A stretch of DNA of 64,000 nucleotides from an uncultured Pelagibacteraceae bacterium. Lineage in GTDB: Bacteria; Pseudomonadota; Alphaproteobacteria; Pelagibacterales; Pelagibacteraceae. A program made the translations under genes and the position numbers. The notes under the pieces were generated by a model that did not search any database, was not told the origin of the DNA, and was given only the letters and a program-made list of their open reading frames with translations. Every line of letters starts with the position of its first letter. Positions within the stretch are counted from its first letter, which is position 1. The stretch covers positions 5,615 to 69,614 of the forward strand of contig CACFZB010000001.1 of the NCBI GenBank assembly GCA_902570715.1. The letters are read 5' to 3'. Of the stretch, positions 537 through 21,210 are shown one piece after another.

Positions 537-1238
537 ATGAACAATATTAGATTATTTTTTTCGAACCCATTATCTGCAGATATGACCAATAAATTAGATA
601 AGTCTCAATCACATTATCTGACTAAAGTTATGCGAATTAAAGAGAGTGAAGTCTTTTCAATATTTAATCAAAATGGAGAATGGGAAGCAAAAATTTTAAA
701 AATATCAAAAGGTATTGTTGAATTTAAAATAGTCAAACAATTAAGAAAAAAAGAAAGTTCACAAGAATTGTGGCTAGCATTCTCTCCAATTAAATCAAAC
801 TATCAAAATTTTATGATTCAAAAAGCCACTGAACTAGGAGTGACTAAATTTTTACCAATTATTTTTGACAGAACAGTTGTGAGAAAAATTAATAATGAGC
901 GTTTGGAAAAAATAGTTATTGAAGCAAGTGAACAATCAAATCGACTAAATGTACCTGAAATTGAGAAAGCTCAAAATTTGAAAAATTTTTTAAACTTAAA
1001 TTCAATGGACTTAATTTTTACTGATTTAAATTCAAATAATAAAAAAATTGATAGATCAAAGTTAACAGATAAACCAATTTGTATTATAATAGGTCCTGAA
1101 GGTGATTTTTCAGAGACTGAAAGAAAGGAGATTCTCTCTTTTAAAGGTGTTCAGCCTCTTAAAATTAATGAGAATATTTTAAGATCAGAAACAGCAGTGA
1201 TATCAGCTATTTCAATCATAAATTATGTGATTAATTGA
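537..1238 (+). CDS. rsmE: 16S rRNA m3U1498 methyltransferase
   Basis: QKATELGV, EASEQS, IGPEGDFS, ILRSETA SPOUT motifs. Confidence 0.95.
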   Translation: MNNIRLFFSNPLSADMTNKLDKSQSHYLTKVMRIKESEVFSIFNQNGEWEAKILKISKGIVEFKIVKQLRKKESSQELWLAFSPIKSNYQNFMIQKATELGVTKFLPIIFDRTVVRKINNERLEKIVIEASEQSNRLNVPEIEKAQNLKNFLNLNSMDLIFTDLNSNNKKIDRSKLTDKPICIIIGPEGDFSETERKEILSFKGVQPLKINENILRSETAVISAISIINYVIN

Positions 1239-1298
1239 TAAATTGTCGCGAAAACTAAAGTGTAATTTTTGTAAAAGAGCTTTATATAGCTATTAAAA

Positions 1299-3748
<2,450 letters not shown>

Positions 3749-15379: not shown

Positions 15380-15877
15380 TTATGAGTTAATTTTTTTTAA
15401 CTCTTCTTTAGTTTCATCCAAATTTTTTTGAAACAAGGTGTCTAGTTTAGATTTATCTACCGAAGTAGTGATAATTTTTTTGACAGAGTCCACAGCAATC
15501 TTAACTGATGCATTTTTTATCTCCTTAATCGCTGTATCTTTCATTTGCGCAATTTTATTTTCTGCAGAATTTTTTTTGATTTCAGAGGATTTGTGAAATT
15601 TGTCATTTAATTCTATAATTAATCTATCACTATCTTTTTTTGCTTGTTCCAAAATTTCATTACTGACAGATTGCGCGGTGTCGAGTTTTTTTTGAGCTTT
15701 GTCTAGCAGCATCTTTGCCTCAGACCGCAATTTTTCACTTTCATTAATTTCATTCTTAATATCTAAAATAAGCTTATTAAGGATTTCATTTATTTTTTGA
15801 GGAACTTTTAAATAAATTAAGCCTCCAAAAAATATAAAAAATGAAACTGCCACCCAGAAAGTTGAATCAATTGTCAT
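15380..15877 (-). CDS. atpF: ATP synthase F0 subunit b
   Basis: MTIDSTFWVAVSFFIF N-terminal TM then coiled coil; ATG 15877 preferred; position in atp cluster. Confidence 0.88.
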   Translation of the reverse strand: MTIDSTFWVAVSFFIFFGGLIYLKVPQKINEILNKLILDIKNEINESEKLRSEAKMLLDKAQKKLDTAQSVSNEILEQAKKDSDRLIIELNDKFHKSSEIKKNSAENKIAQMKDTAIKEIKNASVKIAVDSVKKIITTSVDKSKLDTLFQKNLDETKEELKKINS

Positions 15878-16457
15878 AGTATTTACCTTCATTTTTTTTT
15901 GAGAGATCGTTAACAATTGCTGATATGCTGCTATTATTGATTTCAGTACCTATTAAGGTTTTTAATATCTCAGAAGAAGTTTCAATTGCAATTTTATTAA
16001 TTTTTTCTGGAGCTTTTTTTTTAAGATCATTTATCTCTCTTTCAGCCTTTTTTATTTCTTCATCTATTTGCTTTTCTAAAATTTCTCTTTTAGAGCTAAT
16101 ATCTTTAAGAGTTTTTTCCCTTGCCTCTTTAAAAATATTTTTTGCTTTGGATTTACTGTTTAAAATTATTTCTTCATATTCTCTTAGTTTAGTCTCACTA
16201 TCTTCTCTTTGTTTCTCTGCAGCCTCAATATTTTCTTGTATTTGTGATTTTCTTAATTCCAAATTATTACTTATTTTTGGAAGAATTAGTTTTGATAAAA
16301 CTATATACAAAATACCAAAAGTAAGTGTAAGCCAAAATATTTGAGAAACCCAAAATTCAGGATTTAATTGAGGCATACCTTCGCTTTCAGCTCCAAAAAC
16401 TTCTCCTATAAAAAAGAAATTAAAAAATATTAACTGAAAAAATATTTTTTTAATCAT
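15867..16457 (-). CDS. atpF2: ATP synthase F0 subunit b'
   Basis: GMPQLNPEFWVSQIFWL typical of alphaproteobacterial b'. Confidence 0.88.
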   Translation of the reverse strand: MIKKIFFQLIFFNFFFIGEVFGAESEGMPQLNPEFWVSQIFWLTLTFGILYIVLSKLILPKISNNLELRKSQIQENIEAAEKQREDSETKLREYEEIILNSKSKAKNIFKEAREKTLKDISSKREILEKQIDEEIKKAEREINDLKKKAPEKINKIAIETSSEILKTLIGTEINNSSISAIVNDLSKKNEGKYYDN

Positions 16458-16462
16458 CAAAT

Positions 16463-16690
16463 CTAAAATGCAAAAAGAATGATTAACGCAACTACTAACC
16501 CGAATAATCCAGTTGCTTCTGCAAGTGCAAAACCCAAAAGCAAATTAGGAAATTGTTTTTGTGCAGCTGATGGATTTCTCATTGCACCTGATAGATAGTT
16601 ACCAAAAATTATTCCGATACCAACTCCGGCACCAGCAAGAGCTATTGCCGCAAGACCTGCTCCGATCATTTTTGCTGCTTCTAATTCCAT
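16463..16690 (-). CDS. atpE: ATP synthase F0 subunit c
   Basis: GxGxGxG helix, RNP loop, FALAEATG proton-binding Glu. Confidence 0.97.
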   Translation of the reverse strand: MELEAAKMIGAGLAAIALAGAGVGIGIIFGNYLSGAMRNPSAAQKQFPNLLLGFALAEATGLFGLVVALIILFAF

Positions 16691-16695
16691 TATAT

Positions 16696-16701
16696 CCTCC
16701 T
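16696..16701 (-). promoter_or_regulatory. Strong Shine-Dalgarno (AGGAGG) of atpE
   Basis: AGGAGG-atata-ATG; one of very few clear SD sites in the window, fitting high c-ring stoichiometry. Confidence 0.8.
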
Positions 16702-16708
16702 ATGTTAT

Positions 16709-17443
16709 TTAATGGTGTAAGTTTAATGCATCATTCAAATAGATGCAGGTTAAAATTGCAAAAACATATGCTTGAAGAAAAGCAACTAAGATCTCCAAAC
16801 CAGTTAAAGCAACCGAAAAACTCAGTGGAAGCCATCCACCGACTATTCCAAGGCTTATCACAAAGCCTCCGAAAACTTTCATCATAGTATGACCTGCCAT
16901 CATATTAGCAAAAAGTCTAACAGATAAACTTATAGGTCTACTTAAATACGAAATTATTTCAATTACCACTATCAATGGCAACAAAATTACTGGAACTCCA
17001 CTTGGTACAAATAGTTTTAAATAACCAAAACCATGTTTAATAAATCCTATTATTGTGACTCCAATAAATATAAATGCAGCAAGAACAAAAGTTACAATGA
17101 TATGACTTGTAACAGTAAAAGTATAAGGTATCATTCCAAACATGTTACAGAAAAGCACAAACATAAATAGTGAAAATATGAATGAGAAATAAGGTTTTGC
17201 TTTTGATCCAGCTGTATCACTGATCATTTTTGATACGAAAGTATAACTAAGTTCTGCCAAAAGTTGTATTTTATTTGGCAACATCGAATTTTTTTTAGAA
17301 CCTGAATTAAAAATAAGTAAAATAGCTATAGTGCTAATTACCATAAACAAACTCGCATTTGTAAATGATATATCAAAAGAACCTACTTTTATTTCTGGCC
17401 CAATTCTATAAACTTCAAATTGAGTCATTGGATTTGCTGCCAT
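16709..17443 (-). CDS. atpB: ATP synthase F0 subunit a
   Basis: SFTNAS, SRPISLSVRLFANMMAGH, LQAYVFAILT. Confidence 0.97.
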   Translation of the reverse strand: MAANPMTQFEVYRIGPEIKVGSFDISFTNASLFMVISTIAILLIFNSGSKKNSMLPNKIQLLAELSYTFVSKMISDTAGSKAKPYFSFIFSLFMFVLFCNMFGMIPYTFTVTSHIIVTFVLAAFIFIGVTIIGFIKHGFGYLKLFVPSGVPVILLPLIVVIEIISYLSRPISLSVRLFANMMAGHTMMKVFGGFVISLGIVGGWLPLSFSVALTGLEILVAFLQAYVFAILTCIYLNDALNLHH

Positions 17444-17454
17444 AACTTTTTTAT

Positions 17455-17730
17455 CTATTTTTGCATATTTTTTGCAGATTTAATTACGTTTGTGATGCCA
17501 GCAATTACTCCTACAAAAAAAAATATTAAAATTAACCAAGGTTTAGTACCAAAGGTCTTGTCTAAAATAAACCCAATAATTGTCCCGACTGCTACAGCTG
17601 AAACTAGCTCTGTGCTTAGCTTAAAAGCCGTGCCAATTGGTGATGGATTATGTTTTTTGTCATTTAAATTTCGTTTAGAAGCCTTCTTTTTTGCAATCTC
17701 TAAGCGAGTTTTGAACTGATCTTTTGACAT
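17455..17730 (-). CDS. atpI: ATP synthase protein I (AtpZ/AtpI family)
   Basis: STELVSAVAVG..IGFILDKTFGTKPW; first gene of F0 cluster. Confidence 0.88.
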   Translation of the reverse strand: MSKDQFKTRLEIAKKKASKRNLNDKKHNPSPIGTAFKLSTELVSAVAVGTIIGFILDKTFGTKPWLILIFFFVGVIAGITNVIKSAKNMQK

Positions 17731-17744
17731 TATTATATTATTGT

Positions 17745-20141
17745 TTAAGCAACCATACTTTCTGCTTTTTGTAAATCTACGGCAACTAACTGACTAATTC
17801 CTTTTTCAGGCATCGTTACCCCATAAAGTCTATTCATTTTTGACATCGTTAAAGCATGATGAGTAACAATGATAAATTTAGTATTGGTGATTTTAGTGAG
17901 TTCATCTAATAGACTACAAAATCTAGTTACATTTGCGTCATCTAGTGGAGCATCTACTTCGTCCAAAACGCATATAGGCGATGGATTAGTTAAAAAAACT
18001 GCAAAAACAAGTGATAGAGCCGTTAATGCCTGTTCGCCTCCTGATAACAAAGTAATAGATTGCAATCTTTTTCCTGGTGGACTTACTAACATTTCTAAAC
18101 CAGCTTCAAGAGGATCATCTGAGTCTACTAATTCAAGTTTAGCATTACCTCCATTAAACAGTTTTGTATAAACTTCATTAAATTTTCTATTAACTTTCTC
18201 AAATGCCTCTATTAATCTTTCTCTTCCTTTTTGATTTAATTCATTAATACTATCTTTTAATTTTATTATTGCTGTTACTAAATCAGCACGGTCTTGTTCC
18301 ATTTTTTTTATTTCAGACTCGTATTTATTTGTTTCCTCATCTGCTTTAAGATTTACTGATCCTAACTTTTCTCTTTCCTGTTTTTTCTTATCTAATAAAT
18401 CTTCTTGATTTACTGCATCTGGGAGCTCATCAACTCCAAAAAGATTTGAGTTTTCTAAAATATTTTCTTCTTTTAAATTTAATTCAGAACTAATTCTATC
18501 TATCAAATCGTTTTTTCTTTTTTTAAGACCCTCAACTGTTGCCCCCGAGCTAGCTTTTCTCTCTCTAATTTGTATAAACTGTTCCTGTATCTCATTTAAC
18601 TGAGTTCTTAATTTTTCAATTTTATCATCTGTTTCACCAATGATTTTTTCATTAATATTTTTTTCCTCTTCAGAAATTCTCAAATTTTCTGAAATTTGTC
18701 CTTTTTTTTCTGCTTGAATTTTTGGTTGATTATCTAATTTCTCTAATTGTTTATTGAATCTATTTTTTCTTTCAGATAACTCATCTACCATTTTTTCAGA
18801 GTTTGAGAGTAAATTTTTCCAACTTCCAATTTCTTGATCAATAATATTAATTCTTTCATTTCTTTTGACAGATTCTTTTTTTATATTTTGGTTTTGACTA
18901 TAACTATCTGCATATCTTTCAATACTTTCCTCAAAATCACTAAGTGCATTTATTGCTTCATTATTTTTTTGTAAAGAAATTAATTCTTTTATATTTTTAA
19001 TTTCAGTTTTTAATTTATTCTTTGATTGATTTAAATCTTCACTAGATTGTTTTTCAGTTTCATAATACTTCGAATCAATTTCTATTAATTCATTTTTTTC
19101 CTCCTTAAGCCTTTTTTCATTTGAATTTGCATCAATTATAATTCCCTTTTCTCTTGAAATATCTTCATCCAATGTTTGAAGAGATTTTTTTATATTTTCT
19201 ATCTCATCTTGTGTTCGCATATTTTCTTCATCTAGACTTTGAAGCTCAAGATTAAGCCTCTGAATTTTTGATAAATTTTCAATATTTTTTTCTCTTAGTG
19301 GTGTAACTTTTTCAGTTTCAATTTTAATAGAGGTATCTAATTCAGAAATTTTGTTATTAAATCCACTTACCTCTTCCTCTGCTTCAGTATTTATTTCATT
19401 CTCAATTCTAATTTCTTTATCTATTTCCAGTAATTTCAAATAATACAGTCCAGCTTCAACTTTTTTAATTTCATCAGAAATATTTTTGTATTTTGTTGCT
19501 TCCTCAGCTTGCTTTTGAAGATTAGCTAATTGTCTCTCTTGTTGTTTTCTTAATTCATCTGCTCTTTTTAAGTTGTTTTCTGCGGCTCCTAATCTCAATT
19601 CAGCCTCATGTCTTCGAACATGAAGACCTGAAATTCCAGCAGCTTCCTCTAAAATTGCCCTCCTATCAGTTGGTTTTGCTGTGACAAGAGCACCTATTCG
19701 CCCTTGACTTATCATTGAAGGTGAATGGGCACCTGTCGATAGATCAGCAAAAAACATTTGTGCATCCCTGGCTCGCACTTCTTTATCATTTATATAAAAT
19801 TTTGAGCCTTTATCTTTTTCAATTTTTCTTCTTATATTTATTTCACCAAGTTCTTGATAAATACTAGTTCCCTCGTTATTAACATTTTCAATTGTTACAG
19901 AAACCTCAGCTATATTTTTTGAAGCTTTGTTGGACGTTCCTGAAAAAATTACATCTTCCATTCCTGACCCACGCATACTTTTAGCTGATGTTTCTCCCAT
20001 GACCCATCTTAAAGATTCCACTATATTTGATTTTCCACATCCATTGGGTCCGACAATCCCTGTTAAACCATCTTCAATTAAGAAGTTGGTTTTATCAGCA
20101 AAAGATTTAAACCCATTTAATTGGATTTTTTTAAACTCCAT
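17745..20141 (-). CDS. smc: Chromosome segregation protein SMC, shortened (798 aa, no recognisable hinge)
   Basis: GFKSFA, GPNGCGKSN Walker A, QGRI, EEAAG, LGSVNLKADEE, PPGK, LSGGE, LDEVDAPLD, VTH. Confidence 0.92.
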   Translation of the reverse strand: MEFKKIQLNGFKSFADKTNFLIEDGLTGIVGPNGCGKSNIVESLRWVMGETSAKSMRGSGMEDVIFSGTSNKASKNIAEVSVTIENVNNEGTSIYQELGEINIRRKIEKDKGSKFYINDKEVRARDAQMFFADLSTGAHSPSMISQGRIGALVTAKPTDRRAILEEAAGISGLHVRRHEAELRLGAAENNLKRADELRKQQERQLANLQKQAEEATKYKNISDEIKKVEAGLYYLKLLEIDKEIRIENEINTEAEEEVSGFNNKISELDTSIKIETEKVTPLREKNIENLSKIQRLNLELQSLDEENMRTQDEIENIKKSLQTLDEDISREKGIIIDANSNEKRLKEEKNELIEIDSKYYETEKQSSEDLNQSKNKLKTEIKNIKELISLQKNNEAINALSDFEESIERYADSYSQNQNIKKESVKRNERINIIDQEIGSWKNLLSNSEKMVDELSERKNRFNKQLEKLDNQPKIQAEKKGQISENLRISEEEKNINEKIIGETDDKIEKLRTQLNEIQEQFIQIRERKASSGATVEGLKKRKNDLIDRISSELNLKEENILENSNLFGVDELPDAVNQEDLLDKKKQEREKLGSVNLKADEETNKYESEIKKMEQDRADLVTAIIKLKDSINELNQKGRERLIEAFEKVNRKFNEVYTKLFNGGNAKLELVDSDDPLEAGLEMLVSPPGKRLQSITLLSGGEQALTALSLVFAVFLTNPSPICVLDEVDAPLDDANVTRFCSLLDELTKITNTKFIIVTHHALTMSKMNRLYGVTMPEKGISQLVAVDLQKAESMVA

Positions 20142-20149
20142 AAATAAAG

Positions 20150-20725
20150 TTATATCAGTTTTTCTAATGATTTTTTTAAATTTTTGTAATTTATGGATTT
20201 TTCAAACTTTTTATTATTGATTATTATCGTAGGGGTAGCATTTACATTGAAATTTTTTGTGCCTTCGATTCGATCATTTAAAACATAGTCCTCAATTTCT
20301 TTATTATTGATACAATTTTCAAAATTTATCTTAAATCCAGATTTTTCTAAAAATTTTTTTAAATTATCATTTACATCATCAACAGTATTTCCTTTGACCC
20401 ACTCATTTTGCTTTAAGTATAGTTTTTCCAAAATTTTTAGACCTTGATCAATATTGCATTGAGCTATTTTTGCTGCATTAAAAGCTGCAACATCTAAAGG
20501 AAAATGTCTAAATTCTATTTTTGCTAAACCTGTATCTAAATAATCTTTTTTAAGCTTAGGATAAACATCTCTATGAAAGTTTGCACAATGACTACAAGTT
20601 AAAGATTCGTAAACGATTATTAAAATTTTTGCATCTAATTTTCCTGATATAATACGATCAGTTTCAGCATTAGCATTTATAATTGAACTAAAAAAAATAA
20701 ATACAAGTAAATAAATTTTTTTCAT
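20150..20725 (-). CDS. DsbA family thiol-disulfide oxidoreductase
   Basis: Signal peptide, ESLTCSHCANFH, RHFPLD, ATPT cis-Pro. Confidence 0.9.
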   Translation of the reverse strand: MKKIYLLVFIFFSSIINANAETDRIISGKLDAKILIIVYESLTCSHCANFHRDVYPKLKKDYLDTGLAKIEFRHFPLDVAAFNAAKIAQCNIDQGLKILEKLYLKQNEWVKGNTVDDVNDNLKKFLEKSGFKINFENCINNKEIEDYVLNDRIEGTKNFNVNATPTIIINNKKFEKSINYKNLKKSLEKLI

Positions 20726-21210
20726 TTCTCTTTAAAAACTTTTGTTAACTCTAATAAAGATTTTTTAATATTTTCATTATTAACATCACTAATCTTTTTT
20801 TGATATCTATTTTTTGTCACATTATTTTTAATAGATTTCGTATTAGAACTAATTTTTTGCTCCTCTTCAAAACTTAAAAATTTAATTTTTTCAACAATTG
20901 TCCTACCAAAGAAAATATTCATTTTATCTATGATTTCTTTTTTTGAGTATTCCAAATCTACTTCATGACCTCTTTTGACCATAATTATTAAAGTACCAAC
21001 TCCAAATTTATTTGAATTCTTAAATGATTTTGGATAACAAACTTTAAAAAGATTATCACCAACTATTAATTTCCAATTATTCAATGTTTCTGAATAAACC
21101 TGACCTCTATTATTAATTACTTTTTTAATATTTTTCGGCAAAGTGTCCTTGAAGGATCTTAAACCTTGAATGGTACCCAATCTCTGCTTAGTATTATTTT
21201 TGTATTGCAT
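20722..21210 (-). CDS. dciA: DUF721 / DciA family helicase-loading protein
   Basis: NNWKLIVG...IIDKMNIFFG..IVEKIKF pattern; mutY-DUF721-dsbA-smc context typical of Alphaproteobacteria. Confidence 0.75.
   Translation of the reverse strand: MQYKNNTKQRLGTIQGLRSFKDTLPKNIKKVINNRGQVYSETLNNWKLIVGDNLFKVCYPKSFKNSNKFGVGTLIIMVKRGHEVDLEYSKKEIIDKMNIFFGRTIVEKIKFLSFEEEQKISSNTKSIKNNVTKNRYQKKISDVNNENIKKSLLELTKVFKEK

Follow-up and report, generated by a model that had tools for sequence, protein, structure and literature searches.

A short-armed Smc with no detectable hinge domain in SAR11 bacteria

Textbooks define SMC proteins in part by their hinge, the role of which is debated (dimerization anchor, DNA gate, or gate for the bypass of obstacles). 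Among other members of the superfamily, RecN dimerizes through a coiled-coil apex and Rad50/SbcC through a CxxC zinc hook. Laboratory constructs tolerate a swap or removal of the hinge fold as long as the ring is closed artificially (PMC5344682, PMC12647877). In engineering work from 2017, the Rad50 zinc hook functionally replaced the hinge of Bacillus subtilis Smc, the dimerization domain's fold being irrelevant, and some B. subtilis Smc proteins with shortened arms were also functional (PMC5344682). In 2025, a "core-only" Wadjet, an engineered SMC without a hinge, was reported to work, with a closing cross-link required (PMC12647877). Here, we describe an smc gene of the SAR11 order (Pelagibacterales) on a 64,000-nucleotide (nt) stretch of DNA, hereafter the window, from an uncultured Pelagibacteraceae bacterium (GenBank assembly GCA_902570715.1; contig CACFZB010000001.1, positions 5,615 to 69,614). 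Its 798-amino-acid (aa) product is a true Smc orthologue from which an in-frame loss has removed the hinge and, in both arms, the distal third. We consider it probable (roughly 80%) that this protein is the functional Smc subunit of a SAR11 Smc-ScpAB condensin and that the hinge and the distal arm thirds were lost in the ancestor of the order.

Identity of the protein and absence of the hinge

The smc open reading frame (ORF) occupies positions 17745 to 20141 and encodes 798 aa plus a stop codon. The first-pass annotation of this DNA had called the frame uninterrupted, which it is, and had left out the strand, which is minus (as for all window features below). It had also proposed intact ATPase heads with all SMC motifs and an LGSVNLKADEE motif, and every one of these was located in the ORF. 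The N-terminal head half (aa 1 to 170; 19632 to 20141) is an alpha/beta head in the AlphaFold2 model and carries the Walker A motif GPNGCGKS (aa 31 to 38; 20028 to 20051) and the Q-loop SQGRIG (aa 145 to 150; 19692 to 19709). The C-terminal half (aa 613 to 798; 17748 to 18305), delimited by motifs, PDB matches, and the same model, carries the signature LSGGE (aa 699 to 703; 18033 to 18047), the Walker B/D-loop CVLDEVDAPLD (aa 724 to 734; 17940 to 17972), and the H-loop VTHH (aa 759 to 762; 17856 to 17867). LGSVNLKADEE lies at aa 593 to 603 (18333 to 18365).

Family searches identified the protein as bacterial Smc. Pfam SMC_N matched at 1.2e-44 over aa 4 to 783, and the bacterial Smc equivalog model of NCBIfam (TIGR02168, SMC_prok_B) scored 671.7 bits (cut-off, 567.35). 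The TIGR02168 match fell into two stretches that skipped profile positions ~485 to 762. In a PDB sequence search, the heads matched the solved B. subtilis Smc heads 3ZGX and 5XG3 at ~5e-91. Among 1.84 billion cluster representatives, the closest full-length relatives (~1150 aa) shared 36 to 45% identity. The best 150 of these representatives included only three proteins shorter than 900 aa (858, 864, and 874 aa), two of which were the two top matches, together with four of 988 to 1099 aa and one 326-aa fragment.

Three other identities were considered and rejected. Rad50 models of NCBIfam gave 20 to 42 bits against cut-offs of 700 to 1087, and the protein has no CxxC. RecN structures matched at only 9e-4 to 5e-3, compared with 5e-91 for Smc, and RecN is ~550 aa long. 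For MukB/MksB/JetC, no MukB-type family was matched in Pfam at an E value of ≤10 or was present among the best 25 of 34 NCBIfam matches at an E value of ≤1, and the partners are ScpA and ScpB.

The hinge, the central dimerization domain of bacterial Smc, is a Gly-rich alpha/beta toroid; in Alphaproteobacteria, it is ~130 aa long and follows the pattern L..LLG...GYE.AL.AALGD...HW...GQRLVS..GDLWRWDG. Pfam SMC_hinge (PF06470) did not match the 798-aa protein even at an E value of ≤10, and a six-frame search found it in none of 151 genomes of the order. The Pfam model is, however, weak on Alphaproteobacteria: it covers only about the first 30 residues of their hinge, it matched a Caulobacter control only below the cut-off in the six-frame search, and it entirely missed the hinge of a short Smc from another alphaproteobacterial order (locus L053; see below). 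A Pfam blank alone therefore proves little, and we did not use it as proof of absence. By the same token, architecture surveys based on PF06470 will overcount "hinge-less" Smc proteins in this class. Instead, we built a hidden Markov model from the hinges of ten full-length alphaproteobacterial Smc proteins (profile A2). As a positive control, it recovered the hinge in five of five held-out Alphaproteobacteria (1e-36 to 1e-47). In the six-frame search, profile A2 matched none of the 151 genomes, 143 of which are at least 90% complete, so that a separate hinge ORF, for which the first-pass annotation had proposed to look, was likewise not found there. In a local hmmsearch at an E value of ≤10, it matched none of the SAR11 forms tested (798, 811 to 817, 857, 863, and 880 aa) and matched every hinge-bearing control.

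Other evidence on the middle of the protein agreed with the claim of a missing hinge. No PDB chain matched aa 300 to 520 at an E value of ≤10, and when SAR11 Smc was aligned by MAFFT to full-length proteins from Alphaproteobacteria, no SAR11 residues fell in the hinge columns. Comparison with a 1151-aa relative put the loss at ~125 to 130 aa for the hinge and ~110 to 120 aa for each arm. The zinc hook is missing as well, as had been noted from the sequence: cysteines occur only at positions 35, 724, and 742, all in the heads, which leaves no CxxC. Residues 173 to 593 hold only 10 glycines and 3 prolines.

Predicted hairpin arms, conserved blocks, and variable tip

AlphaFold2 was run on the 798-aa monomer with a 31-row alignment (predicted local distance difference test score, 82). 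It placed helices at aa 171 to 247, 251 to 389, 393 to 470, and 472 to 553, with a three-residue turn at aa 390 to 392 (18966 to 18974), no globular apex, and no strand between aa 146 and 665. The turn falls inside the region, near aa 380 to 410, where a fold-back had been anticipated. A near-continuous helix had also been expected for aa ~170 to 660. This mostly held, except beyond aa 553, where a loop (aa 554 to 575) and a break (aa 592 to 599), the usual head-proximal joint, interrupt the helical stretch. The N-terminal arm helix (aa 171 to 389; 18975 to 19631), seen both in the model and in a heptad scan, is ~219 aa long with a short break at aa 248 to 250. The C-terminal arm (aa 393 to 612; 18306 to 18965) includes the joint loop and the LGSVNLKADEE motif. 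Each chain is thereby predicted to form an antiparallel coiled-coil hairpin ~220 residues long that ends in the three-residue turn, with Q391, K392, and N393 at the turn and N393 capping the return helix. Such an arm would measure roughly 32 nm, compared with ~49 nm for the ~330 to 340 aa of canonical Smc. Long antiparallel arms (~330 to 345 aa per strand) are typical of bacterial Smc; here, a hairpin with an arm of only ~220 aa is predicted. A member of a second family of the order (family 2; 863 aa) was also predicted to be all-helical, with its turn at aa 424 to 430 (sequence EGYDDP).

Length variation among relatives bears on the fold-back. Within one genus, the 798-aa and 857-aa forms differ by ~29 aa before and ~30 aa after a homologous tip motif. 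Of 20 pairwise global alignments, 19 placed the missing residues partly before and partly after the tip, and 11 gave exactly 29 and 30. Because an antiparallel hairpin must stay in register, it needs two-sided symmetric deletions such as these, and the indels support, at the sequence level, arms that fold back as a hairpin.

We measured conservation as entropy in 119 sequences of 798 aa and, for blocks, also across seven genera. Two distal-arm blocks stood out by entropy, by a local conservation peak across the seven genera, and by nonsynonymous divergence (dN, 0.02 to 0.05, with synonymous sites saturated). The first (aa 333 to 366, GIIIDANSNEKRLKEEK...; 19044 to 19145) is family specific and has an entropy near zero; the second lies on the return helix (aa 414 to 450, YSQNQNIKKESVKRNERI...W441; 18792 to 18902). 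In the model, the two blocks probably pair with each other in the hairpin. Between them, the tip (aa 379 to 408; 18918 to 19007), defined by the predicted turn, entropy, a residue table, and contigs, had a mean entropy of 0.96, compared with 0.07 to 0.40 elsewhere. Its invariant residues are confined to the hairpin core and cap (E380, L387, N393, A396, L400, and I407). N393, with which the modelled return helix begins, was found in 118 of the 119 sequences and A396 in all of them. From one genus to another, the conserved blocks lie ~30 to ~112 aa apart.

The same data bear on two other ways of building the molecule. In the first, the central part of the protein would harbor a very divergent mini-hinge, or a separate gene would supply a hinge in trans, and the weakness of the Pfam model on alphaproteobacterial hinges might have concealed either. 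We regard this as extremely improbable given the blank six-frame search with profile A2 (controls at 1e-36 or better), the mere ~30 residues that separate the conserved blocks in the 798-aa form, and the helix predicted throughout in both families. In the second, the chains would not fold back at all. Two of them would form an intermolecular antiparallel coiled coil, a ~65-nm rod with a composite head at each end, for which no hinge would be needed. The almost unbroken helix and the turn of only three residues are compatible with such a rod, and the two-sided indels fit it equally well. On the other hand, N393 and A396 behave as a helix cap and a tight-turn residue, the family 2 turn contains Gly, Pro, and Asp, and AlphaFold2 folds both the 798-aa and the 863-aa proteins back on themselves. 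Moreover, one ScpA could not bridge heads at opposite ends, yet ScpA and ScpB are retained (see below). The rod is accordingly a very improbable arrangement.

Canonical Smc has a hinge-proximal DNA site. We looked for a distal basic DNA-binding patch near the SAR11 tip and rejected it, as paired 14-aa windows showed no positive cluster and the arms carry a net charge of -20. A disulfide or metal bridge through Cys403 was also rejected: of the 119 sequences, 94 have Phe and 21 have Cys at this position, and the arms of 98 contain no cysteine. A complex prediction for two copies of aa 300 to 485 (alignment A4) scored 0.52 against 0.39 for an unrelated control, and we used it neither for nor against binding.

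A more serious alternative to the arms meeting is a clamp with an open top, in which the arms never join near the tip and the heads and ScpA alone hold the complex together. Such a complex would not act as a closed ring; it would function as the clamp or solely by way of the kleisin compartment. Several of the observations above are in line with it: the tip is the most variable region, with only hairpin-core and cap residues invariant, its length varies freely among genera, most sequences (98 of 119) offer neither an arm cysteine nor a metal site, and the arms are net acidic with no distal basic patch. Against it, the engineered Wadjet core was inactive once its closing cross-link was reduced (PMC12647877), and conservation of the two distal-arm blocks extends to nearly all positions, surface ones included, which suggests an interaction surface. 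We judge the open clamp possible but unlikely. If the arms do touch, the blocks at aa 333 to 366 and 414 to 450 would be better contact candidates than the tip.

Spread in the order, selection, and gene neighborhood

An smc gene was present in 147 of the 151 genomes of the order, with open frames of 798 to 891 aa and none longer; Smc is typically 1145 to 1190 aa across the class and ~1150 aa in Alphaproteobacteria outside the order. Lengths fall into classes that go with genera (798 to 805 and 857 to 871; ~810 to 819; 858 to 868; and 880 to 891 aa). Named relatives include Pelagibacteraceae single-cell genomes and "Candidatus Pelagibacter sp." chromosomes. Complete genomes carried only one long SMC each, and no second full-length smc was found in them. 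Judging from these sequences, the hinge loss extends to the whole order, as the first-pass annotation had surmised in suggesting a lineage-wide SAR11 trait. In the literature that was searched, we found no paper describing a hinge-less Smc of SAR11 or Pelagibacter.

A separate observation concerns the metagenome-assembled genome of Pelagibacteraceae bacterium SP38 (L110, nt 1001 to 3454), which encodes a divergent hinge-less form of 817 aa. As this protein is only 39% identical to that of the window, the diversity of hinge-less Smc in the group is wider than the two sampled families.

The assembly that contains the window is fragmented and 55% complete, and an artefact of assembly or binning could in principle have deleted the hinge. 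We rate this explanation as already refuted. More than 100 distinct 798-aa protein clusters (89 to 92% identity) come independently from four sources (ENA, JGI, NCBI, and Tara), and complete single-contig genomes carry forms of 799 to 883 aa. In addition, contigs with zero differences over positions 18741 to 19140, which include the tip, occur in three runs from two studies, which confirms the junction.

The gene might instead be decaying or repurposed, no longer encoding a condensin and drifting toward loss or a head-only role. Smc is missing altogether from many small genomes of Alphaproteobacteria, and three complete genomes of the same genus (G075, G123, and G166; loci L100, L101, and L102) have smc split into overlapping frames of 734 plus 127, 657 plus 222, and 656 plus 221 aa, respectively. 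In two of the three, the break is at a Lys/A-run before EREKLGSVNL. Located in A-runs, the frameshifts may be homopolymer sequencing errors, or they may mark real pseudogenes. The remaining evidence makes decay very improbable. Smc is kept in nearly the whole order, with the extracted frames intact except for the three frameshifted copies, and ScpA, ScpB, and ParB are retained. Divergence data point the same way. The dN was ~0.08 with synonymous sites saturated (proportion of differing synonymous sites, 0.65 to 0.75), so that only upper bounds on dN/dS and relative dN values per region are usable; dN/dS was at most 0.04 to 0.09, arms included. By this measure, smc is under strong purifying selection over its whole length.

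The presence of partner genes, another check proposed at the outset, was seen in the relatives: ScpA and ScpB were each above the family cut-off in 33 of 41, with the two genes adjacent. ParB (ParB_N) is present in the genome of the window itself and in the complete relatives.

In the window, four sets of genes follow one another head to tail on the minus strand between 15380 and 21210, with a 4-nt overlap and gaps of 8 and 14 nt. Upstream of smc and codirectional with it are dciA (20722 to 21210; Pfam DciA, 1e-11) and a gene for a DsbA-like thioredoxin (20150 to 20725; Pfam Thioredoxin_4, 4.5e-34). Downstream and again codirectional, the F0 ATP-synthase genes (atpI-like, a, c, b', and b, assigned by Pfam; 15380 to 17730) start 14 nt past the smc stop and are mentioned only as context, as they lie outside the Smc system. 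The dciA-dsbA pair is also found upstream of a full-length Smc (L037) and of the short Smc with a hinge (L053), which indicates, from gene order, that dciA-dsbA-smc is a conserved alphaproteobacterial smc neighborhood. The tight spacing from dciA to the F0 genes suggests one transcription unit in which a chromosome-organization gene is joined to ATP-synthase genes. One metatranscriptome run contained short contigs over part of smc. They belong to a related allele (9 differences in 175 nt), and we did not accept them as evidence for transcription of this gene.

Proposed mechanism and comparison with known systems

How the SAR11 chains pair and act on DNA we infer from the features above. The two chains would be held together by ATP-dependent head engagement and by ScpA, which would bridge both heads and carry ScpB. 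Most likely, the two arms also touch along their sides and reinforce the pairing, and the best candidates for this contact would be the blocks at aa 333 to 366 and 414 to 450 and not the fast-evolving tip. ParB would load the complex, and the small, slowly growing SAR11 chromosome would be organized much as by a natural "core-only" SMC. Canonical SMC complexes have been proposed to bypass large obstacles by means of a gate at the hinge, and this complex would lack it.

Several points weigh against this interpretation. The Wadjet core needed ring closure (PMC12647877), so a hairpin without a dimerizing apex might not extrude loops. No other part of the protein is as poorly conserved as the tip, whether in sequence or in length, which argues against a specific interface there. 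The AlphaFold2 models rest on alignments of ~30 rows and concern the monomer only. Finally, the assembly to which the window belongs, 55% complete, yielded neither ScpA nor ScpB. We still favor a functional Smc-ScpAB condensin. A stronger proposition, that its arms are unjoined at the apex and that ring closure at the hinge end is unnecessary for condensin function in vivo, is one we hold to be doubtful. If it were true, the hinge and the distal arm would serve as an optional accessory for obstacle bypass, one with which a slow-growing, lightly transcribed 1.3-Mb genome could dispense.

The first-pass annotation had seen in this protein a challenge to the indispensability of the hinge. That was overstated, as the hinge swaps (PMC5344682) and the core-only Wadjet (PMC12647877) came first, and the natural SAR11 case extends the engineered hinge work to nature without overturning a dogma. 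SAR11 is nevertheless among the most abundant bacterial lineages of the ocean, and its Smc, accompanied by ScpA, ScpB, and ParB, is by nature without a hinge and shorter by a third in its arms. This Smc offers a natural minimal protein for biochemical and structural work and would put directly to the test whether the apex has to be closed and what the hinge is for. It also ties the loss of the SMC "periphery" to genome streamlining. Tip lengths in the order form a graded series (798, ~810, 857 to 864, and ~880 aa), which would be useful for comparison.

With canonical Smc-ScpAB of the B. subtilis/Caulobacter type, the SAR11 protein shares the ATPase motifs, the head-proximal arm and joint, and the partners ScpA, ScpB, and ParB; with that of Alphaproteobacteria, it also shares the dciA-dsbA-smc synteny and the level of identity given above. 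It differs in having no hinge domain, its apex being a bare helical turn, and in its arms of ~220 aa (798-aa form) or ~250 aa (857- to 864-aa forms) in place of ~330 to 340 aa. RecN and Rad50/SbcC resemble it in their ABC-ATPase halves split by an antiparallel coiled coil with no globular hinge. In contrast to them, the SAR11 sequence is that of an Smc, has no CxxC, and goes with ScpA and ScpB and not with Mre11/SbcD. An Smc homologue of 728 aa (32% identity over the whole query) was also seen in an uncultured SAR86 cluster bacterium (AG-349-N21; L117, nt 549 to 2735), a member of a further streamlined marine lineage; it was not matched by profile A2, which is not tuned to Gammaproteobacteria.

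The engineered hinge-swapped and core SMCs come close in design, with the heads and proximal arms kept and the hinge and distal arm removed or replaced. By arithmetic, the SAR11 truncation corresponds approximately to B. subtilis Smc residues 1 to 389 joined to 781 to 1186, close to the shortest listed zinc-hook construct (1-398/773-1186). These constructs are artificial and always include a substitute dimerizer (zinc hook or disulfide), whereas SAR11 Smc has neither and, in its truncated form, has been maintained by selection throughout an order. The closest natural parallels in size are an 865-aa Smc from a streamlined marine genome, that of a 1.41-Mb alphaproteobacterium of another order (L053; G197:C1:708300-711800), and an 866-aa Smc from an uncultured Alphaproteobacteria bacterium (AG-893-E21; L112). 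Both resemble the SAR11 protein in length and in dsbA-smc synteny. Both, however, keep a full alpha-type hinge (...GQAIVDKEGNLWRWDG...; profile A2, 1.8e-44 and 2.1e-34), which SAR11 does not, and only their arms are shortened, to ~190 to 200 aa. This neighboring lineage, useful in its own right for comparison, reached ~865 aa with the hinge kept, and hinge loss is therefore not the only route to a small Smc.

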